From an uncultured Ruminococcus sp. (GTDB taxonomy: Bacteria > Bacillota > Clostridia > Oscillospirales > Acutalibacteraceae): a stretch of 24,000 nucleotides of DNA. Made by a program: the position numbers and the translations under genes. The stretch spans positions 8,498 through 32,497 of the forward strand of contig CADBSD010000086.1 in the NCBI GenBank assembly GCA_902797225.1. The letters are read 5' to 3'. A model generated the notes under the pieces. It did no database searches, had not been told where the DNA came from, and saw only the letters and a list, made by a program, of their open reading frames with translations. Positions within the stretch are counted from its first letter, which is position 1, and every line of letters starts with the position of its first letter. Shown piece after piece: positions 8,234 to 21,598 of the stretch.

Positions 8234-8274
8234 AAATACATCCTCCTTTTTCAGCTAATTGCTGTATACACTAT

Positions 8275-8283: not shown

Positions 8284-8304
8284 TATATTTTATATAAAAA
8301 ATTT

Positions 8305-8336
8305 GTTGTTTATTACATTATTATGTTAATTATTAC
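8305..8336 (-). promoter_or_regulatory. Repeat site C: tandem direct-repeat operator (LytTR-type candidate)
   Basis: The minus strand reads GTAATAATTAAC-ATAATAAT-GTAATAAACAAC. These are two 12-mers 20 bp apart (8325-8336 and 8305-8316). The site is near-identical in layout to site B and site A. Confidence 0.55.
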
Positions 8337-8351
8337 ATCTTAACGCTGTTT

Positions 8352-8392
8352 TTTGCAAAAGAAAACCGACCGAGTGTTAGCTCGATCGGTTT
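8352..8392 (-). terminator. Rho-independent terminator, minus orientation, with no upstream CDS
   Basis: Minus-strand RNA: AAACCGAUCGAG-cuaaca-CUCGGUCGGUUU followed by UCUUUUG. The stem is 12 bp with one G-U pair. In plus orientation the same position is a C-A mismatch and the tail is not U-rich. Confidence 0.55.
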
Positions 8393-8447
8393 CCTTAACT
8401 GAAGTTTTGAAATATAGAAGATTATTCTGAAAACATCCTCATACTTC
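8356..8447 (-). ncRNA. Candidate ~90-nt small RNA (predicted promoter plus strong intrinsic terminator, no ORF)
   Basis: An extended -10 TGtTACAAT lies on the minus strand (plus 8454-8462), with the TSS predicted near 8447. The unit ends at the 12-bp-stem terminator at 8363-8392 plus a U tract. Only a 6-codon ORF without RBS lies inside. This rests purely on sequence logic. Confidence 0.3.
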
Positions 8448-8465
8448 GTATTTATTGTAACATAA

Positions 8466-8518
8466 TAAAAAGAAAAAATAAACGCTATTTTTATGTTACT
8501 TTTTACAATATAGCGTTT
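8466..8518 (-). terminator. Second minus-orientation terminator-like hairpin (weaker, large loop)
   Basis: AAACGCTAT (8480-8488) pairs with ATAGCGTTT (8510-8518), giving a 9-bp stem and a 21-nt loop. On the minus strand it is followed by AUUUUUUCUUUUU (plus 8466-8479). It overlaps degenerate repeat site D, so it may be a by-product of that site. Confidence 0.3.
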
Positions 8519-8526
8519 GTTATTAC
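8495..8526 (-). promoter_or_regulatory. Repeat site D: degenerate copy of the tandem 12-mer element, back-to-back with site A
   Basis: The minus strand reads GTAATAACAAAC-gctatatt-GTAAAAAGTAAC, again with 20-bp spacing. The first 12-mer is a good match. The spacer and second 12-mer are poorer. The junction with site A forms the perfect palindrome ATTACGTAAT (8522-8531). Confidence 0.3.
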
Positions 8527-8535
8527 GTAATGGTC

Positions 8536-8567
8536 GTAACAAAAGACATCGCAATGTAACAACATGC
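8536..8567 (+). promoter_or_regulatory. Repeat site A: tandem direct-repeat operator (LytTR-type candidate) upstream of the exporter operon
   Basis: The plus strand reads GTAACAAAAGAC-ATCGCAAT-GTAACAACATGC (12-mers at 8536-8547 and 8556-8567, 20 bp apart). It aligns with site B, tcGTAATAAAAAAC-ATAACAAT-GTAATAAAAAAC, including the flanking tc and the AT..CAAT spacer. Confidence 0.55.
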
Positions 8568-8619
8568 AAATAATTCTATCCCTTTTTTTGAATTGCAGAA
8601 TTATTAAACTGTGAAAAAA

Positions 8620-8632
8620 TGTATAATATAAT
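8620..8632 (+). promoter_or_regulatory. Candidate -10 region (TGTATAATATAAT) of the plus-strand exporter operon
   Basis: Two overlapping TATAAT hexamers at 8622-8627 and 8627-8632, preceded by TG. No convincing -35 is present (aattat or ttaaac). It lies 54 nt downstream of site A and about 40-70 nt upstream of the first start codons. Confidence 0.3.
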
Positions 8633-8670
8633 AGAATAAATAATATTTTGGAGCAGAATGTCATTCTGTC

Positions 8671-9528
8671 GTGAATGAACTGACAGGTTTTATTATGAAC
8701 GGTATTTACAGAAAAAAAGCTATAAAAAACGCGTATTCGACAGAACAGCTTGACAAAGCTATTGTAATATCTTCCCCTCTTTCGTGGCTTGGGATAATCG
8801 GCGTTTTGGTGTTTATTACCGCGGTTATCACCTGGTCTGTTTTTACAACAATTCCGACGGTAGTTAACACAAAAGGAGTATACACCGAAAAGGCGGATTT
8901 ACTTGCAGTTAATTCAGATTGTTCGGGAATTATACAGAAATACTTTATTCATTCGGGCAGCATTGTCAAAAAAGGCGATGTTATCGCTGAAGTTAAAACA
9001 AACACGGGGGAACTAAGAAAGCTAAAATCAAGTTACGACGGTACAATCAGTAGTGTTTTACTAAATGATAATGATGTTGTATATTCTTCGGACGAGCTTA
9101 TCAGAATAACTCCCGAGGACATCCCCGAAAACTGCGTCGTATGTTATCTGCCTTTATCGCAAGCCGAATATATTAAAGAAGGAATGAGCGTTACGCTTTA
9201 CCCAAACCTTAATTATTCCGTTAACGACGCTCATCTGAACGGTGAAATCAAGTATATTGCAAAGTATCCCGCCGACGAGAAAAACACATCTTTAATTCTA
9301 GGCAAAAACAGCGGTCTAAAAAGAATGCTTCTGAAAGATGAGGCGGTTATTGAAGCCGTATGTAAGATAAATAACAAACACGATAAAGATAAATATATTA
9401 CCAATGACAATAAAAGAATTATACTAAAAAACAAATCCGTTCTCTCTTTAAGAATCGTTACCGAAAACACTCCGCCTATTAACAAGCTTTTTAGTTTTAG
9501 TGAAAACCGTGGTGGCGACAATGAGTAA
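8671..9528 (+). CDS. HlyD-family membrane-fusion/secretion adaptor of the NHLM (NHLP/Nif11) bacteriocin export system (TIGR03794-like)
   Basis: The N-terminus MNGIYRKKAIKNAYSTEQLDKAIVISSPLSWLGIIGVLVFITAVITWSVF matches the family pattern: F-R-K-x-A-l-x ... S-x-E-q-L-D, then a single TM helix. A lipoyl-like hairpin is present (GIIQKYFIHSGSIVKKGDVIAEV). The ORF opens at GTG 8671, but ATG 8695 (MNGIYRKK) is the more likely start. It is short (277-285 aa) for a HlyD protein and has little coiled coil. Confidence 0.85.
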   Translation: MNELTGFIMNGIYRKKAIKNAYSTEQLDKAIVISSPLSWLGIIGVLVFITAVITWSVFTTIPTVVNTKGVYTEKADLLAVNSDCSGIIQKYFIHSGSIVKKGDVIAEVKTNTGELRKLKSSYDGTISSVLLNDNDVVYSSDELIRITPEDIPENCVVCYLPLSQAEYIKEGMSVTLYPNLNYSVNDAHLNGEIKYIAKYPADEKNTSLILGKNSGLKRMLLKDEAVIEAVCKINNKHDKDKYITNDNKRIILKNKSVLSLRIVTENTPPINKLFSFSENRGGDNE

Positions 9529-11659
9529 CTACGTTAAGACGCCTGTCGTTTTTCAGAGCGAAGCTTGCGAGTGCGGAGCGGCTGCGCTGACTTGTGTGCT
9601 GTACTATTTTGGCAGATACACGCCTTTGGAAAAGGTACGCGAGGATATCGGAATATCAAGAGACGGATGCAGCGCTGGAAGTATAATGAGAACGGCGAAA
9701 AGCTACAACTTACACTGTCACGGATACCGAAAAGAAACAGAAGATTTAAAAACAATTAAAACACCCTGTATTCTGCATTGGAATCTCAACCATTTTGTGG
9801 TTTTTGAGGGCTTTAAAGGGAAATTCGCCTACATAAACGATCCCGCGCTCGGGAATCGAAAGCTTAGCTTTGAAGAACTTGACAACTCGTTCACGGGAAT
9901 AGTGCTGACCTTTTCCCCTAACGCGGAGTTTAAAAAAAGCAAAAAGCCTCATACATTCTTTAAATTCGCTAAAGAACAGCTTAATACAAATTCAGAAACT
10001 GTTGCAAAGCTGTTTATTATAAACGCGTACCTGGTATTCACGGGGTTAACCCTTCCATTGTTATCAAGAGTATTTATCGACGATGTTCTTGTAAGCAAGA
10101 GCTATGAAGTATTTTCTTGGATAGCGTTTATTATCATCTCCTGCATTATTTTGCAGTTTATTCTTAACATTTACCAAACGACTTTACTTGCAAAATTCAG
10201 AAAAAAGCTTGTACTTTTAACGAGCAAAAAATTTCTTACGCGCTTGTTTGATTTACCGCTTAATTTTTTTGAATACAGATTCGCGGGAGATTTAGCTCAG
10301 AGAGTAAAGAATATTCAAGCCGCCTGTTCTTTTGTTTCAGACGAAACGGCGAGTATATTTTTTGATATAATTATCGCGGTTTTTTATTTTATTGTAATGA
10401 TTATATACAGCCCTATTCTCAGCTTAGCGGCTCTTTTATGCGCGGCTGTAAATTTTATCATTATTAAAACATCGTCAAATTCGCTTTCGGAAAAATCAAT
10501 CAGATTACAAAAAGATACGGGAGTTTTATTAGGCGTATTGTATTCGGGAATTAATTCAATAAAAAATGTAAAAGCGTCGGGGATTGAGCCTGATCTAACC
10601 AAAAAAATCCTCGGATATAACGCTGAACTTCCTCAATCACGCCAAAAATTAGCTCGTACGCAAAACATAATTGACACTTTAACAGAATTCAACAAAAACC
10701 TTTTTGACGTTATCGTTTTAACCGCGGGAGGAATAATTGTAATAAACGGTAATATGAGTATAGGAACACTCGCTGCGTTCGGTATACTTTTAACCCTGTT
10801 TAATCAGCCGATAAGCAGACTTATTTCTGTTTTACAAAAAGTTCAAACGGTAAAATCAGATATTAACCGTACAGACGATATAATGAATTGTAAATCAACC
10901 GGCGATATTGATTTCCCTATAAAAAACGACTTTTTAAAAACAATCAACGGTAACGTCGAACTAAAAAACGTATCATTCGGCTATAGAAAAAACTCAAATG
11001 CTGTGGTATCTGATATAAGCATTGATATAGAATGCGGTTCAAGCGTCGCCATAGTAGGAAAATCGGGCTCAGGAAAATCCACAATCATTAATCTTATAAG
11101 CGGTCTTTATACGCCTTGGAACGGCGAGATTAAATATGACAACATAAACATTAAAGCGTTAAATAAAGAAACTAAGAGCGTTAATGTTTCGGTAGTAAGT
11201 CAGAGCGCTTCCCTATTTCCGTATACAATAAAAGAAAACATTAAAATGTTCAACGAAAGTATAAGCGAGGTGGATATGGTAAGGGCGGCGAAAGACGCGT
11301 GTATTCACGACGAAATACTTAATAAACGCGGGGGATACAATTACCCGCTAAGCGAAAACGGGTCAAACCTCTCGGGAGGTCAGCGCCAAAGACTAATGAT
11401 AGCACGCGCGCTCGCTTCTAATCCCGCTGTCCTTATTATGGACGAAGCGACAAGCTCAATTGACGCTGATACGGAAAAAGAAATACTAAAGAATATAAAA
11501 AGACGCGGTTGTACATTTATATCAGCGGCGCACAGACTAAGCGCTATTAAAAACTGCGATAGAATCATAGTAATCTCCAACGGTAAGATTGTTGGAGAAG
11601 GAACTCACAGCGAGCTTTACAAATCCAACGAGTATTATCAAAAACTTATCAAAAACTAA
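9500..11659 (+). CDS. C39-peptidase-domain ABC exporter (double-glycine leader-cleaving peptidase/permease/ATPase; TIGR03796-like)
   Basis: C39 motifs: oxyanion Gln and catalytic Cys in VVFQSEACECGAAALTCVL, His in HWNLNHFVVFEG, Asp in INDPA. Six-TM ABC exporter core. Walker A GKSGSGKST, signature LSGGQRQR, Walker B LIMDEATSSID, H-loop SAAHRLS. The probable true start is ATG 9521 (MSNYVKTPVVFQ), overlapping the upstream stop by 8 nt. The ORF-track start at 9500 is a GTG. Confidence 0.95.
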   Translation: MKTVVATMSNYVKTPVVFQSEACECGAAALTCVLYYFGRYTPLEKVREDIGISRDGCSAGSIMRTAKSYNLHCHGYRKETEDLKTIKTPCILHWNLNHFVVFEGFKGKFAYINDPALGNRKLSFEELDNSFTGIVLTFSPNAEFKKSKKPHTFFKFAKEQLNTNSETVAKLFIINAYLVFTGLTLPLLSRVFIDDVLVSKSYEVFSWIAFIIISCIILQFILNIYQTTLLAKFRKKLVLLTSKKFLTRLFDLPLNFFEYRFAGDLAQRVKNIQAACSFVSDETASIFFDIIIAVFYFIVMIIYSPILSLAALLCAAVNFIIIKTSSNSLSEKSIRLQKDTGVLLGVLYSGINSIKNVKASGIEPDLTKKILGYNAELPQSRQKLARTQNIIDTLTEFNKNLFDVIVLTAGGIIVINGNMSIGTLAAFGILLTLFNQPISRLISVLQKVQTVKSDINRTDDIMNCKSTGDIDFPIKNDFLKTINGNVELKNVSFGYRKNSNAVVSDISIDIECGSSVAIVGKSGSGKSTIINLISGLYTPWNGEIKYDNINIKALNKETKSVNVSVVSQSASLFPYTIKENIKMFNESISEVDMVRAAKDACIHDEILNKRGGYNYPLSENGSNLSGGQRQRLMIARALASNPAVLIMDEATSSIDADTEKEILKNIKRRGCTFISAAHRLSAIKNCDRIIVISNGKIVGEGTHSELYKSNEYYQKLIKN

Positions 11660-11670
11660 GAGCGGTATTT

Positions 11671-14241
11671 ATGGACAATAAAACTATACTTCTCGAAAGC
11701 GGGAAGAATTATATTAGTACAAATGAATATGACGCTTTCAGAGTTAAAAGCGGTACAGTTCTCGTTTATATCGTTCCTGTTAAAAACGGTAAATCAGGGA
11801 GGAAAAAGCTTATTTACGAGGCAATTGAGGGTGATGTTATCCCCTCTTATGTTTACAAAGACCTTGAGTATAATAGTTTCAGGTTTTGTTTTTCCGCTTT
11901 AGACTCAGCGCAATTAGATGTTATGAGCAACTGCTCAACCAATATATTACGGGAAAAATTCGCAAAAAAAATCGGCTTGGATATTTCGAGCGCCTCACAG
12001 TTTTACGAGGCTCTTGCCGAAAGCTACAGGATGTCCTCCGTTTTGGAGATGGGAGCGGTTAAACGCAAAGAGAATAATAATCAAAGCGTTAAAAAAGGAA
12101 TTATTTCTTCAATAATAAACGCATTTAAAAAGAACCGCAAATACTATACGATACCCAACACCGAAAATGAGCTATATAATGCCGCGGCTTTAATATGCAA
12201 ACAAGAAAACATACCTATAGCAAGTTATGAAGCGGTTAAGTCCTATACGGATAAAAACGTTAGAATTGACGATATAGCAAACAGCTCGGGTTTTGTATAC
12301 AGAGAAATATCGCTCAATAAAAACTGGTACAAAGAGAATATGGGTTCTTTTATCGCCTTTAATAAATCAGGAAAGCCTATAGCCTGTATTTCTAAATCCG
12401 CTAATTCTCACGTCTTTTATAACAAAGAGAATAATAAATTTCAAAAAGCGGATAAAAGCTTCGCCGAAACAATAGAAACAAAAGCATATATACTGTACCG
12501 TCCTTTACCGCCCGAAAGGCTTCAAAAAAGCGATTTAATAAAATTCTGTATAAAAAGCTTAAAGCAATCGGAATTAATCAGACTAATACTTTTATCTATG
12601 ATAATAGCGGTAATCGGACTTTCTCTTCCTGTTTTTTCACAGATTATTTACGATGATCTCATACCGCTTGAAATGAAAAACAATTTACTTAAAATTGGAT
12701 TTACTCTCGCGGTGTTCGCGATAGCAAGCGCGGCGCTGTCGCTTGTTAAAAGGTTTTCGCTTTTCACAACGACTTACAAAATCGCGCTTGATTTTCAAAA
12801 CGCTGTATTTCATAGGCTTATTAATCTGCCTCAAAGTTTTTTTGATAAAAATAATACGACAAAATGTGCTGTCGGAGCTTTTAACTCGGGAGCTTTAGCC
12901 GAAACAATATCGGGCGAAATAATATACTCAGTTATCTGTATTCTTTTTGCCGTTATTTATTTTATTTCGATGATAACCGTCTCCCCTGTTTTAAGCTTTA
13001 CCGCTGTTCCCGCTGTTATTGTTTACATACTGCTGTATTCAATTATTTCCAAAGCTTTTATAAATGAAGAAAAACAAATAGAAAAATACGAAACTCAAAA
13101 CAACTCAATAATATATCAATTTATTCTTTCAATTTCGGAAATAAAAAATTCCGAAGCAAAAGAAAAAGCTATTCTTAAATATTTAAAATCTTATATTACG
13201 GAAGCTAATCACAGAGAAAAAGCAAGCCGGATAAAAGGCGTATCCATAGCTGTTACACTTGCGTTCAACGGGTTGATTACTCTTTGTTTTTACACGGTAT
13301 GTACAGTGTTAAGGATTGATATAAGCGCGGGCTCTTTTATATCTTCTACGACGTTATTCGGCGTATTCTCGGCTTATGTCACACAGATTATAAACAGCAT
13401 AGTAAATATAAAGGCTCAAACACCTTATATGCAGCGCACAAAAATAATTCTGGACGAACTCCCCGAAAATGAAAACGATAAAATAATCCCGCATAATTTA
13501 AGCGGAGATATTTATATTAATAATCTTAGCTTCCGCTATTACGGTGAAAATGACAAAACGCTTAAGAACATAAGTATAAATATTAAAAGCGGTGAATATC
13601 TCGGCATAGCGGGAGCTTCGGGAAGCGGTAAATCTACTCTTATCAATCTTTTGCTCGGCTTTTACAGCGACTATAACGGCGAAATACGTTATGACGGTTA
13701 TAATATTAAAGAGTTGAACAAACAAAAACTTAGAAAAAATATGGGCATTGTTCTTCAAAACGATACACTTTTACCTGACACGATTCTCCGTAATATATCC
13801 GTGAATTCTCCCGAAGCTTCAATAAACGATGTGAATAAAATCACGGATGAACTGGGATTATCGGAAGATATTAAAAAAATGCCTATGGGATTATACACAT
13901 TACTTAACGAAAACTCTACCACAATTTCCGAAGGGCAAAAGCAAAGAATATTACTGTGCAAAGCATTATTATCTAATCCCAAAATAATAATACTTGATGA
14001 ATCCACATCTTCACTCGATAACGAATCTCAACAGCTTATTCTGAATGCCCTTAAAAAAAGAACAGCTACAAAAATTGTAGTCGCGCAAAGACTAAATACA
14101 CTTATTGACTGCGACCGAATAATCGTTATAAAAGACGGCGAAATAACGGAAACAGGACGCTATAAGGATTTAATTAATAATAAATCAGGCGAGTTTTATA
14201 AACTGGCACAAAATCAGATTGACGATATTGATGAAAGGTAA
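11671..14241 (+). CDS. Second NHLM-system ABC exporter permease/ATPase lacking the peptidase domain (TIGR03797-like), with ~300-aa N-terminal extension
   Basis: 856 aa. TM exporter core from about aa 300. Walker A GASGSGKST and Walker B IILDESTSSLD are canonical. The signature is ISEGQKQR (not LSGGQ) and the H-loop reads VVAQRLN (Gln where His is expected). The N-terminal part (FRVKSGTVLVYIVPVKNGKSGRKKLIYEAIEGDVIP) looks like a cNMP-binding-type beta-barrel by eye. An 11-nt gap separates it from the upstream gene. Confidence 0.92.
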   Translation: MDNKTILLESGKNYISTNEYDAFRVKSGTVLVYIVPVKNGKSGRKKLIYEAIEGDVIPSYVYKDLEYNSFRFCFSALDSAQLDVMSNCSTNILREKFAKKIGLDISSASQFYEALAESYRMSSVLEMGAVKRKENNNQSVKKGIISSIINAFKKNRKYYTIPNTENELYNAAALICKQENIPIASYEAVKSYTDKNVRIDDIANSSGFVYREISLNKNWYKENMGSFIAFNKSGKPIACISKSANSHVFYNKENNKFQKADKSFAETIETKAYILYRPLPPERLQKSDLIKFCIKSLKQSELIRLILLSMIIAVIGLSLPVFSQIIYDDLIPLEMKNNLLKIGFTLAVFAIASAALSLVKRFSLFTTTYKIALDFQNAVFHRLINLPQSFFDKNNTTKCAVGAFNSGALAETISGEIIYSVICILFAVIYFISMITVSPVLSFTAVPAVIVYILLYSIISKAFINEEKQIEKYETQNNSIIYQFILSISEIKNSEAKEKAILKYLKSYITEANHREKASRIKGVSIAVTLAFNGLITLCFYTVCTVLRIDISAGSFISSTTLFGVFSAYVTQIINSIVNIKAQTPYMQRTKIILDELPENENDKIIPHNLSGDIYINNLSFRYYGENDKTLKNISINIKSGEYLGIAGASGSGKSTLINLLLGFYSDYNGEIRYDGYNIKELNKQKLRKNMGIVLQNDTLLPDTILRNISVNSPEASINDVNKITDELGLSEDIKKMPMGLYTLLNENSTTISEGQKQRILLCKALLSNPKIIILDESTSSLDNESQQLILNALKKRTATKIVVAQRLNTLIDCDRIIVIKDGEITETGRYKDLINNKSGEFYKLAQNQIDDIDER

Positions 14242-14244
14242 GGA

Positions 14245-14562
14245 TTGTTTATGAGAAGTGATAATAAGCTTTTAGAATTAACGGGTAAGGTATTGTCGAA
14301 TAACGACAGCGCAGAGAAACTGACTAAAGTAAAATCTATATCGGATATTAAAAAAATATTCGAAAATAACGAAATCAAAATAACGTCCGAAGAAGTTGAG
14401 CGAATCGGCATTCTTCTGAATAACGATGAGCTAAACGAAGAAATGCTTGATACTGTAAACGGCGGCGGCGCTGTGGAGATGATTATTCTCGGCGGAGTTT
14501 TAGTCAGCTTAGCGGCAGTCGGCGCGTGCAGAGCGGCTTATTTGAGCATAAAAAAGGATTAA
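14245..14562 (+). CDS. Nif11-like leader, double-glycine precursor peptide (TIGR03798-like) with hydrophobic 31-aa core
   Basis: The likely start is ATG 14251 (AGGA RBS at 14241-14244, 6-nt spacer). The track start at 14245 is a TTG. The 72-aa leader MRSDNKLLELTGKVLSNNDSAEKLTKVKSISDIKKIFENNEIKITSEEVERIGILLNNDELNEEMLDTVNGG follows the Nif11 leader pattern, ending in (E/D)-L-x-E-E-x-L-x-x-V-x-G-G. The predicted core (nt 14467-14559) is GAVEMIILGGVLVSLAAVGACRAAYLSIKKD. The gene sits directly after its cognate three-gene exporter. Confidence 0.85.
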   Translation: MFMRSDNKLLELTGKVLSNNDSAEKLTKVKSISDIKKIFENNEIKITSEEVERIGILLNNDELNEEMLDTVNGGGAVEMIILGGVLVSLAAVGACRAAYLSIKKD

Positions 14563-14571
14563 TGTAAACTT

Positions 14572-14934
14572 ATGGAAAGAAATTACGAAAAAAACTCTCT
14601 TATAATCAGAGATAGCAACGGAGATTTTAAGCTAAGCATTTCAACAAAATACAATAATGATTCATCGCTGATTAAAGTATCGGGCGAGTTAAGTTCTGAT
14701 GTTTCTCACGATTTTGAGGATGAGCTTATGGCGGTTGTCACCGTACGCGATAATATAGATTTGGATTTATCTGATGTCACAAAAATATCGTCAGTCGCTT
14801 TAAGAGCGCTGTTATCAGCTCAACAGATTATTGACGAGAGAGATAACGCGTCGCTTAGAATACTAAATATGAGAAAAGAAGTTTTAGGCTTTTTTGAGGA
14901 AAAGGGCTTTGACGATCTTTTTATTATTGTCTGA
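14572..14934 (+). CDS. STAS-domain protein (SpoIIAA/RsbV-like anti-sigma-factor-antagonist fold)
   Basis: 120 aa. IKVSGELSSDVSHDFEDELMAVV...IDLDLSDVTKISSVALRALLSAQQII...LRILNMRKEVLGFFEEKGFDDLFII matches the STAS layout. Ser73 (nt 14788-14790) aligns by eye with the phosphorylated Ser of the SpoIIAA D-S-S-G motif. No RsbW/SpoIIAB-type kinase or sigma factor is nearby. Confidence 0.8.
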   Translation: MERNYEKNSLIIRDSNGDFKLSISTKYNNDSSLIKVSGELSSDVSHDFEDELMAVVTVRDNIDLDLSDVTKISSVALRALLSAQQIIDERDNASLRILNMRKEVLGFFEEKGFDDLFIIV

Positions 14935-14961
14935 CAAAAGATTTAACAGGAAAATATAAAA

Positions 14962-15846
14962 ATGAACCAATACAATCCATATAAAATATATGAAGGAAAT
15001 GAAAACTACATATTCTCAAGCTACTCACACAAGGACGAAGACAGAGTCATCAGGATATTAGAACAGCTCGCGAAACACGGATGCCGATTATGGTATGACA
15101 ACGGTATTAACGCGGGAAGCAACTGGCCCGAGGTTATCGCTGGACATCTGAATAATTGTAAGGTGTTTTTATCTTTTATTTCTAAAAACGCGGTTAATTC
15201 TCATAACTGCAGACGGGAAATAAACTTTGCCGTACTTAAGAAAAAAACTATTATAACCGTCTTTTTGGAAGATACGGTTTTATCCCCCGGTATGGAAATG
15301 CAGCTTTCAACTATGCAGTTTATAGAAAAGTACAAGCTCTCGGACGAGGAGTTTTACGAAAAACTTTTAGATAACAAAAAGATAAAAGAATGTATCGGAA
15401 AGCCTGATAAGAATATAAAAATTCCTAAAGGTATAAATCACGAGCCGCAAAAAAGCTATGATAACCTATGGCTTAGTAAAGAATACACAGGCGAAAAAGA
15501 TTTTTATTTTATAAAAAATACTGTTTTCTATTTAATACGAAAAAATACAGGCGAAAAGATAAGAATAAATCCCGAGGGATTTAACATAGGCAGAAAATCG
15601 GAATTTTGTGATTATACAATCAACGGCAACAAAACCATAAGCCGACTTCACGCCACAATGAAAATCAGAAATGAAAAATGTATTATTTATGACCACGATT
15701 CGCTTAACGGCGTATATGTAAACGGCGAGGCTATAACGCCGAATACCGAAACAGAGCTTATCGCTCACGATGAAATCAGGCTGGGAAGCGAAAAATTTAT
15801 ACTTGTTTCAGATGAAGAAGAAAGCATAGAAAACACGGAGGAATAG
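14962..15846 (+). CDS. TIR-domain / FHA-domain fusion protein
   Basis: N-terminal TIR_2-type domain (aa ~15-104): YIFSSYSHKDEDRVIRILEQLAKHGCRLWYDNGINAGSNWPEVIAGHLNNCKVFLSFISKNAVNSHNCRREINFAV. The glutamate at the usual catalytic position is E86, nt 15217-15219. C-terminal FHA domain (aa ~188-282): G210-R211, S227-R228-x-H230, N249-G250 (FNIGRKSEFCDYTINGNKTISRLHATM...DSLNGVYVNGEAI...IRLGSEKFILV). No TM helix or signal peptide. AGGAAA RBS. Confidence 0.88.
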   Translation: MNQYNPYKIYEGNENYIFSSYSHKDEDRVIRILEQLAKHGCRLWYDNGINAGSNWPEVIAGHLNNCKVFLSFISKNAVNSHNCRREINFAVLKKKTIITVFLEDTVLSPGMEMQLSTMQFIEKYKLSDEEFYEKLLDNKKIKECIGKPDKNIKIPKGINHEPQKSYDNLWLSKEYTGEKDFYFIKNTVFYLIRKNTGEKIRINPEGFNIGRKSEFCDYTINGNKTISRLHATMKIRNEKCIIYDHDSLNGVYVNGEAITPNTETELIAHDEIRLGSEKFILVSDEEESIENTEE

Positions 15847-15847
15847 A

Positions 15848-17782
15848 TTGGGTAGATTCTGTTTTAATTGTATGATGCCCGTAAACAAAGATAAATGCGG
15901 ACATTGCGGATATACACAATTTAATAAAACTCCAGCGCATCATTTACTCCCCTCCACCATACTTAACAACCGTTATTATATAGGCAACGCTATAGGACAG
16001 GGCGGTTTCGGAATTACATATATAGGACGAGATTTAAACCTTGATATGACAGTTGCGGTTAAGGAGTTTTTTCCTAACGGATACGCAAACCGCAACAATA
16101 ACGCTTCACCGGAAGTGGAAGTATCAGGGGCTAAAAACATAGAGTTTTTTAATTCTGGAAAAGAAAAATTTATACGCGAAGCAAAGCTTCTTGCAAAGTT
16201 CTCAGGCAACAAAAGCATTGTTTACGTAAGAGATTATTTTGAAGAAAATAATACCGGATATATTGTAATGGAATATGTAAGCGGTGAAACTCTTACAAAG
16301 CACATTAAAACTCAAGGAAGATTCAATCCAAATAATCTCCTGGATAAAATGCTTCCGCTGTTCAGCGCGCTCGGCAAAATCCACAAAAGCGGACTTATAC
16401 ACAGAGATATCAGTCCCGACAACATTATGCTGCTGAGCGACGGCACATTAAAGCTTATGGATTTCGGAGCGGCAAGGTATATTAATTTTCTCGACAATCA
16501 CACAATGTCGATTATGTTTAAACCCGGTTACGCTCCCGAGGAACAGTATCGTCAAAAAGGCTCCCAGGGCTCCTGGACGGATGTTTACGCGATTTGCGCG
16601 ACTATGTACAAGTGTATAACAGGAGAAACTCCCGATGATTCTATGGAACGAGCTTTTAAGGATAATTTTAAAAAGCCGTCATTATTGCGCCCTGATATTT
16701 CAAAAGAATACGAGGAAGTTCTTCTTAAGGGAATGGCGGTTTATAAAGAAAACAGATTCCAGACTATGGAGGAATTATCCGCGGCGTTTTTAAAAGCTAC
16801 GGGAAAACACTACTCTGATTTGTCAGAAAACAATTCACAAAACTCCTACTCCCCTATAGATTTCGAAAATGATAAAACAGAGTTTTATTCAGCGGACGAG
16901 GACGATGATACCGAATACTACGAAGAAACCATAAATAAACAATCCGATGAAGAAATAAGTAATTCAAAAGAATCTACATCAGAAAAGAGAATTAAAAAAA
17001 GCAGAAAAAAGCTTTACATAATACTAATCGTGATTATAATCACAGCTTTTATCGGATTCTATTATCAATATGAGAAATCCACATATGTAAAAACACCTAA
17101 TCTCGTAGGTTTAGAAAAAGCGAAAGCGGAAAACAAATTAAAAGCAAAAGAGCTTAAATTCATAGAAAAGCTTGACTATTCCGATACTGCTGAAAAGGGC
17201 GATGTTATTTCGCAAAGCCCTCAGAAATTCAGGCAGATTAAAAAGGGCTCAACCGTAGTATTAGTTATCAGCAACGGAAAGCTGGTTACGGTTTCCGATT
17301 ACAAAAATCTTTCTTTATCAAAAGCAAAAAAGCTCATATCAAATTCAGGGCTAAAGATAAAAGTTACGAAAAGAACGTTTTCGGAGAAGATTAATAAAAA
17401 TCATATTTTAACACAATCTCCTAAAGGCGGAACGGCTTTACCCGAGGGCAGTACTGTTTCAGTCGAAATAAGCAGGGGCAAAAGAAAATATAAAGTTCCT
17501 AACCTTATAGGAAAGAATTATAAATCCGCTTTAAAAGCGTTAAAAATCTTTAGAACAGAAATTGTATATGAATACAGCAGTGAAACGGAAAATACCGTTA
17601 TAAAACAATCTCCCGAAAAAAACACCAGGCTTACAAAAAATTCAAAAATTACCCTAACAGTAAGCAAAGGCCCCGCTCCGACTACACCTCCTGCTACAGC
17701 GACAGTTCCGCGGGTTCGTTACACCACACCAACGAAAAAGAATACACAAAAATCTTTCAGCGGTTTAAATATTGACTCATAA
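15848..17782 (+). CDS. Hanks-type Ser/Thr protein kinase with N-terminal zinc ribbon, one TM helix and three extracellular PASTA domains
   Basis: The TTG start sits 1 nt after the upstream stop, with GGAGG 6 nt upstream. Zn ribbon CFNC-x9-CGHC. Kinase motifs GQGGFG, VAVK (K72), HRDISPDN (D187), DFG (D205), GYAPEE. TM helix LYIILIVIIITAFIGFYYQY (aa ~389-407). Three PASTA repeats (VKTPNLVGLEKAKAENKL..., VTVSDYKNLSLSKAKKLI..., YKVPNLIGKNYKSALKAL...). Thr/Pro-rich tail. No PP2C phosphatase gene is adjacent. Confidence 0.93.
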   Translation: MGRFCFNCMMPVNKDKCGHCGYTQFNKTPAHHLLPSTILNNRYYIGNAIGQGGFGITYIGRDLNLDMTVAVKEFFPNGYANRNNNASPEVEVSGAKNIEFFNSGKEKFIREAKLLAKFSGNKSIVYVRDYFEENNTGYIVMEYVSGETLTKHIKTQGRFNPNNLLDKMLPLFSALGKIHKSGLIHRDISPDNIMLLSDGTLKLMDFGAARYINFLDNHTMSIMFKPGYAPEEQYRQKGSQGSWTDVYAICATMYKCITGETPDDSMERAFKDNFKKPSLLRPDISKEYEEVLLKGMAVYKENRFQTMEELSAAFLKATGKHYSDLSENNSQNSYSPIDFENDKTEFYSADEDDDTEYYEETINKQSDEEISNSKESTSEKRIKKSRKKLYIILIVIIITAFIGFYYQYEKSTYVKTPNLVGLEKAKAENKLKAKELKFIEKLDYSDTAEKGDVISQSPQKFRQIKKGSTVVLVISNGKLVTVSDYKNLSLSKAKKLISNSGLKIKVTKRTFSEKINKNHILTQSPKGGTALPEGSTVSVEISRGKRKYKVPNLIGKNYKSALKALKIFRTEIVYEYSSETENTVIKQSPEKNTRLTKNSKITLTVSKGPAPTTPPATATVPRVRYTTPTKKNTQKSFSGLNIDS

Positions 17783-17796
17783 AAAAGGAGTTTTAA

Positions 17797-20235
17797 ATGA
17801 AAAACTTAAAAAGAGTAATATGTATCTTTATTTGCACACTGATACTTTCATCACTTTTTACAATGAATTATTACGCGCTTGAACAGAACGAAACATACAG
17901 CGGTACTACAGGCGATTGCGCCTGGGAATATAATCCCGATACAACAACAATTACCATATCAGGCGCAGGCAATATGGCTGATTATACGGGAGCTGATTTA
18001 CCGCCTTGGAATTGTTTTAGAGAAGAAGTGAAAAATGTTATTATTAATAACGGAGTAAAAAGCCTTGGGGGATATTCCTTTTATATGTTTTCAGCTCTGG
18101 AAAACGTATCCTTTCCCGATACTTTGGAAGAGATACACTCGTCAGCTTTCAGAGCCTGTTCATCGCTTAAAGAACTAAATATTAATAACAAAGTCCATTT
18201 TATTGAATACGGAGCGTTTTCGGATTGCGATAATCTGGAATCCATTCATTTGCCTGTTAATTTATCTACTCTGCAAAACGGTGTGTTTTTCAATCTTCCA
18301 AAACTGAAATCCATCTATATTCCCTATAACGTCAACGCTCTTTATACTACTTTCAATAACTGTCCTTCGCTTACAACCGTACATTTATCCTCTAAAACAG
18401 CGCTTACAAACAACGAAAACCAAAAGGTTTTTATGAATTGTAATAATATAAGAGATGTATATTATTACGGTAAACTAACTGAGCTGAGAAAAGAACAGTT
18501 AGCAAATGAACCTGATTTCGCAAACGCGACATTTCATTACATCAATGATATACAATACGAGGATGAGGGTGACTCGGCAAGCGGTACAACAGGCGACTGC
18601 GTATGGGAATATGATTCAAAGACAAGAACGCTGACCATATCTGGAAACGGTCGAATGGAGGATTATGACGAACTGGAAACAAGACCATGGAATGACTATG
18701 AAATGAAAATAATAAAAGTAGTTTTCAAAGAAGGCGTTAAACATATCGGACGAAATTCATTCACATTCTTTTCAAATATAGAAAACGTCAGATTTTCAGA
18801 CAGTGTAGAAAGTATAGGAGAATACGCTTTCCAATCATGCTCGTCTTTGGAATATATTAAAATCACAGAAAATATTACACAAATTGACAACGGAGCGTTT
18901 ATGTGGTCGGGAATAAAAAAAGTTGACCTTCCTGATAACATAGAATTTTTTGGAAACTGGTTTGAAGGATGTTCCAATCTTAAAACCTTTAAGATACCAA
19001 ATAGTTTAAACTGCATTCCCTGTGATTCTTTTCAGTATTGCCGTGGTCTTAAAGCTATTTCTTTTGGCAATAACATAAAGAATATAGGTAATAACGCTTT
19101 TGGCAACTGCACCTCACTCACAGATATTTACTTTATGGGTACAGAGGAAGATTGGGATAATATCGAAATAGAGGAATCGGAAAACGAATACTTTTTAAAC
19201 TCAACTGTACATTTCAATGAGGAGATGCCTACTGAGTTTATTCCTATCGAAACAACATCAGCCGCACCTGAAACAGTAGAAAATACAACTAACGCTTCTG
19301 AAACAACTACTTCTCTTGAAACTACTACAGAATATATAACAGAACCTCCTGAAAGCACTGTACCTGAAACAACGTTTAATTTCGTAACCGATCCTTTAGA
19401 AACCACCGTTATCGAAACTACCGCGGAAATTGTTACCGAACCCGAGGAAACCACAATAGAGTTTATTCCCACAACCCCCACGACAACCACTGAAATCACC
19501 ACTTCACCTGTAATAAGCACTGAAGCACCGACAATTTTTACAGAACCGAACACCTCCTATGTTTCCAAGGAATTAACAACAGCTTTTGAGCAAACTACTT
19601 CGCCTGTAATAATCCCTACAGAAAGCTTTACAACGATAGTTCCTACGTTGCCGATTATAACCGAACCTGTTGAAACTAAACCGTATACCATCGCTCCAAA
19701 GAACAAAACGGTTAAAAAGAAAACACAAAGCATTATCGCGAAATCGTATTCGGCTGTACCAAAGAGCAAGCCGTTCACAATAAAAGCGAAAGCAAAAGGT
19801 AAGATTAGCTTTTCTACAAAATCAAAAAAAATAATTACGCTTACGAAAAACGGTAAGGTAACTGTCAAAGCTATAGGCATAGCATATATCAAGATTCATG
19901 CCGCGGGTAATAAGCTTTACAAATCCGCCGATAAAACAATTAAGGTAATTGTAAGGCCGCCACAGCTTAAACTGCTTTCTAAATCGGGTGGAACAAACAA
20001 GAAATACACGATTTATTTCAAGAAAATACCGAATGTTTCGGGGTATGAACTTCTCTATAAAGCAAAGGGTGAAAAGAAATATAAAAGAATTCTCGCAAAT
20101 AAAAACGACAATAAATTTGTCATTAAAAATCTTAAATATACAAAACATACAATAAAATCAAGAGCATATAAAAAAATATCAAAGATTAAATTATACGGCG
20201 CGTTTACTAAAGCGTCCTTTGGTCCGTCGGCATAA
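17797..20235 (+). CDS. Secreted BspA-type leucine-rich-repeat surface protein with Thr/Glu/Pro linker and Lys-rich Ig-like plus FN3-like C-terminal modules
   Basis: AAGGAG RBS, and a 14-nt gap after the kinase gene. Signal peptide MKNLKRVICIFICTLILSSLFTMNYYA. Two duplicated ~230-aa LRR modules each open with SGTTGDC[AV]WEY...T[IL]TISG.G.M.DY. Linker ETTSAAPETVENTTNASETTTSLETTTEY... (nt ~19240-19700). C-terminal KGKISFSTKSKKIITLTKNGKVTVKAIGIAYIKIHAAGN (Ig-like), then an FN3-like segment. No LPXTG motif. Confidence 0.9.
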   Translation: MKNLKRVICIFICTLILSSLFTMNYYALEQNETYSGTTGDCAWEYNPDTTTITISGAGNMADYTGADLPPWNCFREEVKNVIINNGVKSLGGYSFYMFSALENVSFPDTLEEIHSSAFRACSSLKELNINNKVHFIEYGAFSDCDNLESIHLPVNLSTLQNGVFFNLPKLKSIYIPYNVNALYTTFNNCPSLTTVHLSSKTALTNNENQKVFMNCNNIRDVYYYGKLTELRKEQLANEPDFANATFHYINDIQYEDEGDSASGTTGDCVWEYDSKTRTLTISGNGRMEDYDELETRPWNDYEMKIIKVVFKEGVKHIGRNSFTFFSNIENVRFSDSVESIGEYAFQSCSSLEYIKITENITQIDNGAFMWSGIKKVDLPDNIEFFGNWFEGCSNLKTFKIPNSLNCIPCDSFQYCRGLKAISFGNNIKNIGNNAFGNCTSLTDIYFMGTEEDWDNIEIEESENEYFLNSTVHFNEEMPTEFIPIETTSAAPETVENTTNASETTTSLETTTEYITEPPESTVPETTFNFVTDPLETTVIETTAEIVTEPEETTIEFIPTTPTTTTEITTSPVISTEAPTIFTEPNTSYVSKELTTAFEQTTSPVIIPTESFTTIVPTLPIITEPVETKPYTIAPKNKTVKKKTQSIIAKSYSAVPKSKPFTIKAKAKGKISFSTKSKKIITLTKNGKVTVKAIGIAYIKIHAAGNKLYKSADKTIKVIVRPPQLKLLSKSGGTNKKYTIYFKKIPNVSGYELLYKAKGEKKYKRILANKNDNKFVIKNLKYTKHTIKSRAYKKISKIKLYGAFTKASFGPSA

Positions 20236-20236
20236 G

Positions 20237-20271
20237 AAAATCTCGGAACAATTCAATGTTCCGAGATTTTT
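20237..20271. terminator. Bidirectional rho-independent terminator between convergent operons
   Basis: Perfect 14-bp stem AAAATCTCGGAACA (20237-20250) / TGTTCCGAGATTTT (20257-20270) with the 6-nt loop attcaa. A-run and T-run flanks give a U tail in both orientations. It starts 1 nt after the LRR gene stop and ends 9 nt before the histidine-kinase stop. Confidence 0.85.
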
Positions 20272-20279
20272 CTATTTAT

Positions 20280-21587
20280 CTATAAACCTGTACTTAAGGA
20301 AACGATAACCGAAAAATCATCTCCGTTTAACTCCGTCGCAACCTCTCCGTTATATTTTTCACTAATGTCCTTTAATATTTTTAGTCCGTTTCCTCTTCCT
20401 TTTTGTTTAGGTTTATTTTCTATCGGGTTGGTTTTATTAATTGTTTTAATGTATATAATTCCGTCGCTTTCCCGACACGAGATTATTAAACTCTTTTTAT
20501 CTCCGTGATAGTTTTCCAGAGCTTCAATACTGTTATCAATCAGATTAACGAAAACTCTGCACAAATCAATATCATCTATTCCGCAATTATCCCGCAAAAT
20601 TATATTGTATGTTACGGAAATATTATTTTCATACGCGGAAGTCAACTTATCGTAAATGATAAGATTTACGAGCTTGTTTTCACAAACCGCGGGAATCCTT
20701 GTTTTTTCCGTGGTTTCCTTAAGCTGTTTAGTAAGCTCTTTTGCTTCTTTACCGCTCGTTTCATTACCCTCAGCTACAAGCGCCTCAACAACCGAAATAA
20801 GATTATTTATATCATGTCTGAGCTTTACTGTATCATCAACACTTTTTTGAATCTTCGCGTAATACTTAGCTTGTATTCTGTTTTCGGCTAAAAGCACCTC
20901 ATTTTCGGCTTTAATTCTCTCAAGCTTACTGTTATTGCGTGTAAAAACAAATGACATTATATCAAGAAAAACAAAACCAGATAATGTAGCGGCTATTATA
21001 CTTAACTTAGAAATCAAAGCCATATTATTATTGCGTTCAAACAAGATTAGAAAAATAACCGAAAGAATAATTATCTGGGCGTAAATTATCGTAAGAAAGG
21101 CGGAGCTGTTTGTAAAAAGAGTATCACTCACTTTTTCAGAATTTGCTTTCAACCAAATGATTGTTATCACGGACATAATAAAAAGCATCATAAAAAAGTA
21201 AAACGCGCAAACATAATACTGTTTAAAATAATCTTCAACTTCTAAGCCCAGCGAAAAAACAGAATAAGTAATTAAATCCGTTATAAACCAAGAAAAAATC
21301 GCGAGAGCCGAAAAAACAAGTTTTCTTATAATATTATCTTTAAAACATATTATTACCCAAACGGCAAATAAATAAAACTCAACGAACTCAAGTATTTCGC
21401 TTTTAAAATCAAGACGCATATGAATGGTACTGAAAAACCAGACAGAAACCGATGAAACAATAATTATATACTTGTTACACCTCGGCTTTAACACCATAGT
21501 AGCAGCAGTCGCCATAAAAAGAAAGACAATTAACAGCAAAAAGCCCTCGTTTTTTACGCTTTGAGTATTTTGTAAAAAAGTATGCAT
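20280..21587 (-). CDS. AgrC-like (HPK10 family, GHKL) membrane sensor histidine kinase
   Basis: 435 aa. About six or seven N-terminal TM helices. H-box TVKLRHDINNLISVVEAL, N-box VFVNLIDNSIEAL, G-box KGRGNGLKILKDISEKY. It lies immediately downstream of a LytTR response regulator, the typical peptide-sensing pairing. Confidence 0.88.
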   Translation of the reverse strand: MHTFLQNTQSVKNEGFLLLIVFLFMATAATMVLKPRCNKYIIIVSSVSVWFFSTIHMRLDFKSEILEFVEFYLFAVWVIICFKDNIIRKLVFSALAIFSWFITDLITYSVFSLGLEVEDYFKQYYVCAFYFFMMLFIMSVITIIWLKANSEKVSDTLFTNSSAFLTIIYAQIIILSVIFLILFERNNNMALISKLSIIAATLSGFVFLDIMSFVFTRNNSKLERIKAENEVLLAENRIQAKYYAKIQKSVDDTVKLRHDINNLISVVEALVAEGNETSGKEAKELTKQLKETTEKTRIPAVCENKLVNLIIYDKLTSAYENNISVTYNIILRDNCGIDDIDLCRVFVNLIDNSIEALENYHGDKKSLIISCRESDGIIYIKTINKTNPIENKPKQKGRGNGLKILKDISEKYNGEVATELNGDDFSVIVSLSTGL

Positions 21588-21598
21588 CTTATAGTCAT

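Follow-up and report, generated by a model that had tools for sequence, protein, structure and literature searches.

A 24-kb stretch of DNA from an uncultured Ruminococcus sp. (GenBank assembly GCA_902797225.1, contig CADBSD010000086.1; hereinafter, the window) carries eight plus-strand genes (g1 to g8) that join a peptide export cassette to genes for a STAS protein, a cytosolic TIR-FHA protein, a receptor serine/threonine kinase and a leucine-rich repeat (LRR) protein. Comparison with related loci indicates that these eight genes and an adjoining pair that encodes a histidine kinase (HK) and a LytTR-family response regulator form one conserved cassette in gut and rumen Clostridia, in which the exporter, the STAS gene and the TIR gene are linked beyond chance. 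Every part of the cassette is a known domain and the secretion half is of a known kind, so that what is apparently new is the exporter-STAS-TIR combination. We favor, at a confidence somewhat short of even, the interpretation that the cassette provides sensor-gated control of a peptide exporter. All evidence presented here is comparative, and the related loci are mostly contigs of metagenome-assembled genomes (MAGs) that were viewed over +/-10 kb.

Conserved linkage of a peptide exporter with STAS and TIR genes

We scanned GTDB, at one genome per species, with TIR motif patterns as the query and obtained 79 loci, nearly all from rumen or gut Clostridia MAGs; the six-frame open reading frames (ORFs) of these loci were then scored with the window proteins. 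The TIR-FHA family itself is large, with about 3,000 cluster representatives (50% identity clusters) retrieved in a profile search at E <= 1e-30. The whole arrangement of the window recurs at 88%, 68% and 47% identity (L001, L002 and L005, respectively); L008 (41% identity) shows the order sigma-HlyD-ABC1-ABC2-peptide-STAS-TIR-FHA without the kinase, and L006/L007 (44% identity) contain only the TIR-FHA and kinase genes. In about 20 of the 79 GTDB loci, a subset that spans Ruminococcaceae, Oscillospiraceae and Lachnospiraceae, an ABC exporter subunit with a C39 peptidase domain (ABC1) and a second subunit with the same N-terminal domain as its window counterpart (ABC2) are found together with STAS and TIR, and three further loci encode STAS and TIR with no exporter in view. 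The order HlyD-ABC1-ABC2-(peptides)-STAS-TIR is also seen in L001, L002, L005, L008 and L100-L102, down to 33-40% identity, and, L027 excepted, all these loci have STAS as the gene directly upstream of TIR.

The association holds when the search starts from the other genes. A profile made from a 10-sequence STAS alignment retrieved eight loci from metagenomes; the TIR gene is next in all six that include downstream DNA, and the genes upstream of STAS, where visible, are those for precursor peptides and ABC2. A search with full-length ABC2 yielded a block of orthologues that extends to 32% identity and is followed by a drop to cyanobacterial NHLM proteins (1e-139 to 1e-95), and the three ABC2 orthologues with 47%, 39% and 33% identity all have STAS and TIR-FHA genes attached. 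The flanking genes differ among the window, L001 and L100, and the eight genes and the HK/LytTR pair stay together. The conserved order and the co-occurrence in both directions bear out the proposal, made when the window was originally annotated from sequence alone (the original prediction), that these genes form one unit; the exporter, STAS and TIR-FHA are linked far beyond chance.

The claim of novelty made at that stage also stands: a literature search found no paper on this combination and nothing relevant on TIR-FHA proteins, the STAS-TIR pair, the co-occurrence of TIR, STAS and Nif11, or bacterial proteins combining TIR, LRR and a transmembrane (TM) segment, and no defense system model describes it. 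FHA and STAS are mentioned by Kaur et al. 2020, in other contexts only.

Invariant core and interchangeable sensor modules

Comparison of the loci shows that the invariant set consists of ABC1, ABC2, STAS and a TIR domain of one subfamily, which is recognizable by the motifs SHNCRREINFA and GMEMQLS. Thus, the exporter-STAS-TIR core of the linked module that was originally proposed is retained, but the kinase is not an obligatory part, and the kinase, PASTA and FHA components are interchangeable. The C-terminal partner of the TIR domain is an FHA domain in the window, two FHA domains in L102 and, elsewhere, a TM helix with an ectodomain that consists of LRR_5 (L020), LRR_4/8 (L033) or RCC1 repeats (L030). 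Most of the loci with an FHA-bearing TIR protein have a Hanks kinase nearby, and the kinase is absent from L020, L021, L033, L059 and L027, where the TIR domain is fused to a TM helix and an ectodomain. Among the kinases, the catalytic domain remains similar at about 1e-100, including that of g7 in comparison with kinases that bear other ectodomains, and the ectodomains vary, comprising PASTA, LRR (as in the L101 kinase), C-type lectin with fn3, Flg_new or TPR. The simplest reading of these architectures is that the TIR domain is coupled to an extracytoplasmic sensor, either by direct fusion or by FHA-phosphothreonine docking on a receptor kinase. Because the PASTA ectodomain is interchangeable among the relatives, the muropeptide-specific version of the envelope damage hypothesis included in the original prediction, which may otherwise hold, is not general.

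The same TIR subfamily also forms tandem arrays of 2-4 paralogues without STAS or ABC genes nearby (L052, 9983-15423; L064, 355-4992; L061, 8668-12700; also L041, L076 and L086), and the members examined (L022, L034 and L074) have one TM helix each and ectodomains that vary but are often LRR. The TIR-TM-LRR arrangement reverses the domain order of Toll-like receptors and occurs widely among gut and rumen Clostridia.

The STAS and TIR-FHA proteins

The profile of the g5 family, which is characterized by the motif H-D/E-F-E-D-E-L, matches SpoIIAA/RsbV structures at 3e-9 to 6e-7. As originally predicted, g5 retains a phosphorylatable serine, S74 (14791-14793), which aligns with the phospho-Ser of SpoIIAA/RsbV. 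The HATPase-type anti-sigma kinase and the sigma factor were both sought in the window and neither was found; in the relatives, there is an extracytoplasmic function (ECF) sigma factor and no anti-sigma kinase.

The g6 protein contains no TM segment, in accord with its annotation as a cytosolic TIR-FHA protein. It consists of a TIR domain (about 15010-15369), a disordered linker (aa 158-184) and an FHA domain (about 15541-15813), and the AlphaFold2 (AF2) model (pLDDT 80) shows two folded domains with the linker disordered between them. The FHA fold is confirmed by a match with E 1e-11 and the motifs GR210, SRLH227 and SLNG247. The TIR domain carries the motif SHNCRRE with a putative catalytic residue, E86 (15217-15219). 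In a profile search with the TIR domain only, the best solved relative was the CRISPR-associated TIR protein Cat1, which we take to be an NADase, and E86 aligns with the Glu of the Cat1 WCxxE motif, a position that is occupied by Gln in MyD88. The Glu of the (S)xWCxxE motif, located in helix C, is the catalytic residue of enzymatic TIR domains. This Glu is conserved in 19 of 20 homologues and in all 12 loci that were found independently of the TIR motif, and the TIR domain of g6 can be predicted to keep the NADase-type catalytic residue.

The receptor kinase and the LRR protein

The g7 protein combines an N-terminal Zn-ribbon (C5/C8/C17/C20), a kinase domain (about 15980-16759), an acidic, Thr-rich juxtamembrane segment, a TM helix (aa 389-407; 17012-17068) and three PASTA domains (about 17075-17668). 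The presence of the motifs K72, HRD185, DFG205 and APE229 agrees with the prediction of a catalytically intact kinase. The best solved relative of the kinase domain is PpkA (5hnv; 176 bits, E 8e-51), compared to 104, 92 and 85 bits for the housekeeping kinases PknB, Stk1 and StkP, respectively, and the score of g7 with the Stk1-family model NF033483 is 348 bits, against a cut-off of 450. Housekeeping PASTA kinases conventionally neighbor the Stp phosphatase of the PP2C family; there is no PP2C gene in the 24-kb window, and the neighbors of g7 are the genes for TIR-FHA and the LRR protein. The possibility that g7 is a misplaced PrkC orthologue is contradicted by the PpkA-like domain, the sub-cut-off match to NF033483, the extra Zn-ribbon and the lack of a PP2C neighbor, and the proviso attached to the original prediction, that the kinase might be the PrkC orthologue merely located here, fails given its affinity with PpkA (176 versus 85-104 bits). 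About 10 related loci contain Stp1-like PP2C genes, which would appear to complete a PpkA/PppA/Fha-like triad there.

The g8 protein contains a signal-peptide-like N-terminal hydrophobic segment, Thr/Pro-rich linkers and a basic C-terminal region, and a gene of this type follows the kinase also in L001, L002, L005, L009 and L100. Because LRR_5 repeats are fused to the TIR domain via a TM helix in L020, we count g8 in the system, probably as a part of the sensor.

The secretion genes

The first four genes show the three-gene NHLP/Nif11 layout, with the C39 domain in g2 alone, according to Pfam, and a double-glycine (GG) motif in g4. The best NCBIfam models are TIGR03794 for g1 (95.5 bits versus the cut-off of 156.2), TIGR03796 for g2 (811.6 versus 853.3) and TIGR03797 for g3 (587.2 versus 709.4). 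Hence the designation of these genes as a canonical NHLM/Nif11 cassette is valid with respect to the layout and the GG precursor, but not with respect to the scores, all three of which are under the cut-offs. Similarly, the identification of g4 as a Nif11-leader precursor is weak for g4 itself, which scores 14.4 bits with TIGR03798 (Nif11 leader) against a cut-off of 32.3, with model positions 6-68 of 68 aligned, but holds for the homologous precursor of L005, which passes with 33.8 bits. One L101 precursor gives a weak match to PF07862, and the scores of g4 with class II bacteriocin models are likewise below the cut-offs (Bacteriocin_IIc/PF10439, 25.1 versus 27.1 bits; TIGR03949, 13.2 versus 21.5). 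Given the sub-cut-off scores of g1-g3, the weak Nif11 match of g4 and the passing score of its L005 homologue, the g1-g4 cassette appears to belong to the NHLP/Nif11 export family as a divergent branch.

The g1 gene has an alternative ATG start at 8695, and at least 13 loci have an orthologue at the corresponding place. In g2, the C39 domain (about 9539-9925) contains both the Cys (QSEACECG) and the His (NHFVV) catalytic motifs. In the closest GTDB genome (Ruminococcaceae UBA2854), ABC1 is split into parts of 347 and 343 aa (L009, 4691-6746), which reflects either a frameshift or pseudogene or else an assembly error.

The g3 protein (ABC2) has an N-terminal region that was overlooked in the original prediction and is not detected by Pfam: the first 300 aa gave nothing, and PF00027 does not match even at E = 10. 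In the AF2 model (pLDDT 84.7), this region comprises a CAP/cNMP-binding-like beta-barrel with a long helix (aa 1-151; 11671-12123), followed by a second alpha/beta domain (aa 167-296; 12169-12558). Nearly all of the top 50 Foldseek matches in the PDB are CAP/CRP-family regulators and cNMP-binding domains, and the fold matches CAP, CRP, PKG and CprK (E about 1e-4, prob 1.0, about 130 columns aligned). The layout cNMP_binding-C39-ABC is seen in P0191, a distant ABC protein. Aligning the ABC2 N-terminal alignment with P0191 by hhalign matched the TM region alone, and a homologue search with the ABC2 N-terminus alone returned two matches. Taken together, the modeled CAP-like fold and the P0191 layout suggest that ABC2 is the exporter's regulatory subunit and carries a predicted ligand-binding domain.

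The leader of g4 (aa 1-72) ends in ...LDTVNGG, with L-12, L-7, V-4 and the GG all kept, and the core (14467-14559) is a hydrophobic peptide of 31 aa with a basic tail. Within the window clade, the core is 77-97% identical, compared to 49-68% for the leader and 47-68% for ABC2, STAS and TIR-FHA; bacteriocin cores are not usually constrained so strongly, and the peptide may therefore have a specific partner. With their Gly-rich (GxxxG-like) stretches and basic tails, the core peptides resemble class IIb bacteriocin helices. No maturase gene is present in the window, and the g4 peptide is predicted to be exported unmodified. In L101 (12062-15491), the stretch from ABC2 to STAS holds Nif11-type precursors with two radical-SAM genes interspersed; because these enzymes are encoded among the precursors, some members of the family probably export modified peptides.

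Regulation of the cassette

Upstream of g1, two GTAACAA direct repeats and a -10 box are invariant in an alignment of the window with L001, L002, L009 and L100, and the repeats can be predicted to serve as a LytTR-type binding site. In L001, L009, L096 and L100, the HK/LytTR pair accompanies the eight genes despite differing flanks, suggesting that it belongs to the system, with the histidine kinase as the probable transcriptional sensor of the cassette. In other clades, there is no HK/LytTR pair, and an ECF sigma gene heads the operon in 17 loci. All 17 also contain, directly upstream of STAS, a small ORF of 43-107 aa, denoted 'type B', with the motif F..DDRLSxLI...ELSxDELDxVxAA, which shows double-glycine-leader spacing with an AA end, and a hydrophilic mature part of 14-22 aa (D[FY]xxF[LM][RK]). 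The 'type B' peptides belong to no Pfam or NCBIfam family (for Pfam, even at E = 10) and could be pheromones or exported regulators. The window clade has neither the ECF sigma factor nor the 'type B' peptide. Because STAS, TIR-FHA and the kinase are all retained when the transcriptional regulators are exchanged in this way, they probably act not only in transcription.

In several loci, ABC2 and the 'type B' peptide are separated by a conserved ORF of 156 aa with multiple TM segments, which shows no family match, has no counterpart in the window and could encode an immunity protein.

Functional interpretation and alternatives

We favor the hypothesis of sensor-gated export because of the strict ABC2-STAS-TIR linkage, the co-variation of FHA domains with kinases, the PpkA-like identity of the kinase and the existence of FHA-ABC fusions. 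Under this scenario, the g4 peptide would be cleaved by the C39 domain of ABC1 and exported by the ABC1/ABC2 heterodimer with the assistance of the short HlyD-like protein. An outside cue would be perceived by the PpkA-like receptor kinase through its PASTA ectodomain, probably together with the secreted g8 protein, and the kinase would autophosphorylate on Thr. The FHA domain of TIR-FHA would dock on the phospho-Thr, in a non-covalent counterpart of the TIR-TM-LRR fusions of the relatives, and the docking would cluster and activate the TIR domain. The most likely output would be post-translational gating of the exporter, that is, a 'fire on cue' checkpoint comparable to PpkA/Fha or PknF/FHA-Rv1747, with the signal received by STAS and/or the CAP-like domain of ABC2. 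Transcription in the window clade would probably proceed via the LytTR regulator acting on the direct repeats upstream of g1. A phosphothreonine checkpoint on export, the first hypothesis of the original prediction, finds indirect support, by analogy, in the PpkA-like kinase, the FHA-ABC proteins of L099 and L101 (see below) and the Rv1747/PknF precedent. A more specific and decidedly speculative version envisages a TIR-based transmembrane signaling pathway: the TIR domain, activated by the fused receptor or the receptor kinase, would produce a nucleotide derived from NAD, and the CAP-like domain of ABC2 and/or STAS would sense it and open the exporter. If true, secretion would here be gated by a second messenger, in a non-defense use of bacterial TIR enzymes, which, to our knowledge, have so far come from anti-phage defense (Thoeris, Cat1 and others) and virulence factors.

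Several observations weigh against sensor-gated export. In about 55 loci, the same TIR subfamily is represented by stand-alone TIR-TM-LRR genes, sometimes in tandem arrays, with no exporter, which implies that the TIR domain has an exporter-independent output. The module is incomplete in L017 (STAS-TIR-FHA-kinase, with no ABC gene within 6.8 kb upstream) and in L012 (TIR-FHA and kinase only), and in L102 there is no peptide gene between ABC2 and STAS. About 10 of 27 STAS homologues have A, N or G in place of the phospho-Ser, so Ser phosphorylation is not a universal switch, and the cytosolic N-terminus of the HlyD-like protein has no conserved phospho-acceptor Thr, the candidate residue being confined to the window and replaced by Pro in the others. 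The sample is also subject to ascertainment, as the GTDB loci were collected via TIR motif patterns, mostly on MAG contigs and within the +/-10 kb view. Finally, we infer the co-transcription, the phosphorylation partners, the TIR activity and the effect on export alike from the comparative evidence.

Of the alternatives, the best surviving one, which we nevertheless consider unlikely, is a surface-triggered TIR effector: the receptor would sense a phage, a competitor or envelope damage, and the TIR domain, by depleting NAD+ or producing a signal, would arrest or kill the cell, with the exporter as a co-regulated weapon and STAS as a brake on TIR. Such a role would suit the conserved NADase-type Glu that aligns with that of Cat1, the stand-alone tandem TIR-TM-LRR genes with variable ectodomains (L052, L061, L064, L041, L076 and L086), which are typical of recognition receptors, the likewise diverse ectodomains of the kinases, the integrases adjoining L005 and L101, and the weak ThsB-type TIR matches (PF08937, 6.6e-5; PADLOC ThsB, 2.8e-6). 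However, neither a ThsA-like gene of the Thoeris system nor any other known effector partner is present; a PADLOC scan of all eight proteins produced generic TIR-like and Ser/Thr-kinase matches, with none for STAS, g1 and g8; the TIR-FHA profile found no relatives in 2.9 million viral contigs; and the neighborhoods are mostly housekeeping rather than defense islands. The effector hypothesis also leaves unexplained the strict linkage of STAS-TIR to a single ABC2 clade with its own sensor domain, which is the central element of the sensor-gated export scheme.

Still less convincing to us is autocrine or quorum signaling, whereby the exported peptide would be sensed by the LRR or PASTA domains, and the module with its STAS antagonist would control the transcription factor of the operon. 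The SpoIIAA/RsbV type of the STAS protein, the ECF sigma gene that opens the operon in the 17 related loci with the 'type B' peptide, the presence of PP2C and kinase genes, and the g4 core, more conserved than the leader or any cassette protein as expected of a ligand, are all compatible with this model. However, the window clade has the HK/LytTR pair instead of the sigma factor and 'type B' peptide, and yet keeps STAS, TIR-FHA and the kinase; neither an anti-sigma factor nor a HATPase-type STAS kinase is found in any of these loci; and the phospho-Ser of STAS is not universal.

Self-protection, in which the module would sense damage inflicted by the cell's own hydrophobic peptide and replace a class II immunity protein, seems improbable, and the corresponding hypothesis of the original prediction gains no support. 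In favor of self-protection are the lack of a small membrane immunity gene in the window, the resemblance of the core peptides to class IIb bacteriocin helices and the fact that the PASTA domains of PrkC/PknB/Stk1 bind cell-wall ligands. However, PASTA is not conserved in the family, L023, L026, L028 and L030 encode the separate 156-aa multi-TM immunity candidate in addition to STAS and TIR, L102 has STAS and TIR without a peptide gene in the operon, and we know of no immunity mechanism that involves TIR or STAS.

That the downstream genes are unrelated neighbors of the exporter, namely a housekeeping PASTA kinase, a stray TIR protein and an anti-sigma antagonist that are there by chance, is barely credible: the combination is unusual and PASTA kinases are near-universal housekeeping genes in Firmicutes, but the order is kept to 33-40% identity in many species with differing flanks, the co-occurrence holds in both directions, the kinase is PpkA-like, scores below the Stk1-family cut-off and has no adjacent PP2C gene in the window, and the genes are separated by junctions of 1-27 nt with no internal terminator.

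The analysis delineates a large TIR family, without source annotation in the searched collection, that is tied to surface receptors, with one branch strictly tied to a peptide-secretion machine and STAS. The bacteriocins and signaling peptides delivered by ABC peptide exporters influence the make-up of gut and rumen communities. Should export be gated by the TIR output, as in the sensor-gated scheme, the cassette would embody a new regulatory logic for ABC peptide exporters and a bacterial counterpart of receptor-to-TIR signaling. If the TIR domain is a suicide or arrest effector, the family would represent defense-like receptors that sense from outside the cell. In either case, the cassette is a compact, testable gene set, and its natural 'fusion versus split' variants show which of its parts communicate.

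Layout of the window and flanking genes

The eight ORFs span 8671-20235, and ORF analysis recovered exactly the originally described layout and junctions: an 8-nt overlap of g1 and g2 followed by gaps of 11, 9, 9, 27, 1 and 14 nt, with a TTG start of g7 located 1 nt past the g6 stop and preceded by GGAGG 8 nt upstream. All the domain assignments were reproduced with Pfam and NCBIfam (g1-g3 and g5-g8; Table 1). There is no further annotated gene between the cassette genes, and the G+C content is 35-40% throughout the window. A second GG-leader peptide and a separate pheromone gene were sought in the window and not found, and the original observation that it contains neither a maturase nor an obvious small membrane immunity gene is correct. 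An Rfam scan of the window gave no match.

The hairpin at 20236-20271 ranks top among the terminator-like sites in 8000-22600 and, judging from its sequence, closes both the operon and the convergent HK gene. It is the only strong plus-strand hairpin, in agreement with the predicted absence of an internal terminator; the other plus-strand hits, at 10141 and 11689, have stems of 5 and 7 pairs and are both within coding sequence. In total, 16 terminator-like sites were detected, which is not above the shuffled expectation of 10.3 +/- 3.4, and promoter-like and terminator-like consensus matches inside the operon are no more common than in shuffled sequence. Given this layout, co-transcription of g1-g8 is plausible.

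Table 1. Features of the window and of related loci (coordinates of the latter refer to the respective locus)
Feature	Position	Strand	Signature or match
Putative promoter region	8536-8627	+	GTAACAA repeats 8536-8542 and 8556-8562 (20-bp period); TATAAT 8622-8627
g1, short HlyD-like membrane-fusion/accessory protein, 285 aa	8671-9528	+	HlyD_3, Biotin_lipoyl
g2 (ABC1), C39-peptidase ABC exporter	9521-11659	+	Peptidase_C39 3.1e-33, ABC_membrane, ABC_tran
g3 (ABC2), second ABC half-transporter without peptidase	11671-14241	+	ABC_membrane, ABC_tran
g4, precursor peptide with long Nif11-like leader	14251-14562	+	GG motif, sub-cut-off family scores
g5, STAS protein of SpoIIAA/RsbV type	14572-14934	+	STAS, STAS_2 7.5e-10
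g6, cytosolic TIR-FHA protein	14962-15846	+	TIR_2 2.4e-20, FHA 3.1e-14
g7, receptor Ser/Thr kinase	15848-17782	+	Pkinase 1.3e-33, PASTA 1.4e-42
g8, secreted/surface BspA-type LRR protein, 812 aa	17797-20235	+	LRR_5 7.8e-58, 3 stretches
Bidirectional intrinsic terminator	20236-20271	both	15-pair stem, 6-nt loop, T-rich tail
AgrC/ComD-like multi-TM histidine kinase	20280-21587	-	HATPase_c_5 1.3e-13
LytTR-family response regulator, HK partner	21657-22364	-	Response_reg, LytTR
'Type B' ORF	L005 9414-9596; L008 9317-9529		
'Type B' ORF, further loci	L011, L014, L015, L019-L021, L023, L026, L028-L033, L058, L059		
156-aa multi-TM ORF	L023 8115-8588; L026 8668-9138; L028 8651-9124; L030 8808-9281		

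Divergently upstream of the operon, the minus strand (1184-8233) encodes a 2349-aa protein with a BspA-type LRR_5 region. Because L096-L098 contain this gene whereas L001 and L100 lack it, it is probably outside the cassette. Further out on the same strand, there is a gene for a beta-helix protein (1-1128). Upstream of the operon promoter, at 8359-8396, the window contains an inverted repeat rich in G+C (AAACCGACCGAG / CTCGATCGGTTT). L002, L009 and L100 share a hairpin at the corresponding site; on the minus strand, a T-run follows, and the repeat may be a terminator at the left edge of the cassette. An integrase gene is located just upstream of the L101 cassette, and L005 is likewise integrase-adjacent. 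Just past the right end of the window, L096 (22526-22571) encodes an alpha-amylase with a dockerin domain, which suggests an amylosome-forming, Ruminococcus-like host.

Comparison with known systems

The secretion half resembles the NHLP/Nif11 clusters described by Haft et al. 2010 (PMC2887384), which consist of a HlyD-like protein (TIGR03794), a C39-ABC protein (TIGR03796) and a second ABC protein (TIGR03797). The three-protein layout is the same, the precursor has a long leader with GG, and these models are the best-scoring ones for g1-g3. Unlike the members of that family, the HlyD-like protein of the window is a third shorter, ABC2 has a clade-specific CAP-like N-terminus, no maturase is encoded in the window, and STAS and TIR are attached to the cassette, an association that is undescribed for the family.

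With the Blp/Com/Pln class II bacteriocin loci, the cassette shares the GG-leader peptide with a hydrophobic, Gly-rich (GxxxG-like) core, the C39 exporter with an accessory protein, the adjoining HATPase_c_5 kinase and LytTR regulator, and direct repeats upstream of the operon; the last two features are those of LytTR-regulated peptide loci of the Agr/Com/Blp type. It differs in having two ABC subunits rather than one and a long Nif11-like leader, with no immunity or separate pheromone gene found in the window, and STAS, TIR-FHA, the kinase and the LRR protein have no counterpart in those loci.

The PpkA/PppA/Fha pathway of the type VI secretion system (PMC3953482, PMC6082577), in which Fha binds phospho-TssL and thereby activates secretion (PMC3953482), is paralleled by the PpkA-like g7, the FHA protein encoded just upstream, the attached secretion machine and the PP2C gene of about 10 related loci, the window itself being without PP2C. 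However, the machine in question is an ABC peptide exporter, the FHA protein bears a TIR domain, and the ectodomain is PASTA, LRR or lectin rather than vWA; no type VI secretion genes were found in the window or the related loci.

Another precedent is Rv1747, an ABC exporter of M. tuberculosis with two N-terminal FHA domains that is activated through FHA by PknF, the kinase encoded in the same operon (PMC3138270). Both systems encode a Hanks kinase and an FHA domain alongside an ABC exporter; in the window, however, the FHA domain belongs to a separate TIR protein and the substrate is a ribosomal peptide, and Rv1747 has neither STAS nor TIR. Two further loci connect FHA domains with exporters directly. 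In L101, an FHA-FHA-ABC gene comes after the kinase, following the cassette. In L099 (GCA_973470565.1, 1-23744), which represents an unrelated lineage, two FHA domains are located N-terminally on an NHLM-type ABC2, and the neighbors encode cNMP_binding-FHA, FHA, STAS, FHA-GAF-PP2C (SpoIIE) and HATPase_c_2 proteins as well as LanM with precursors; by its gene content, this locus appears to be a second, independent link of FHA and STAS to this exporter family.

Like the enzymatic TIR systems (Thoeris, Cat1 and SARM1), g6 contains a TIR_2 domain with a WCxxE-type Glu; unlike them, it has no ThsA, CARF or ARM partner in the window and is tied to STAS and an ABC exporter. The relatives with an LRR ectodomain, a single TM helix and a TIR domain on the cytoplasmic side resemble Toll-like receptors, except that the TIR domain is N-terminal and the order, accordingly, inverted.

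Finally, g5 shares with SpoIIAA/RsbV the STAS fold and the Ser at the phosphorylation site, and the relatives include loci with PP2C and, in other clades, the ECF sigma factor. It differs in that no HATPase-type anti-sigma kinase is encoded, about a third of the homologues have lost the phospho-Ser and the constant neighbor is the TIR gene. A STAS protein also serves as an accessory subunit of an ABC transporter in the MlaB-MlaF pair, and the g5 gene similarly adjoins the genes of an ABC transporter.

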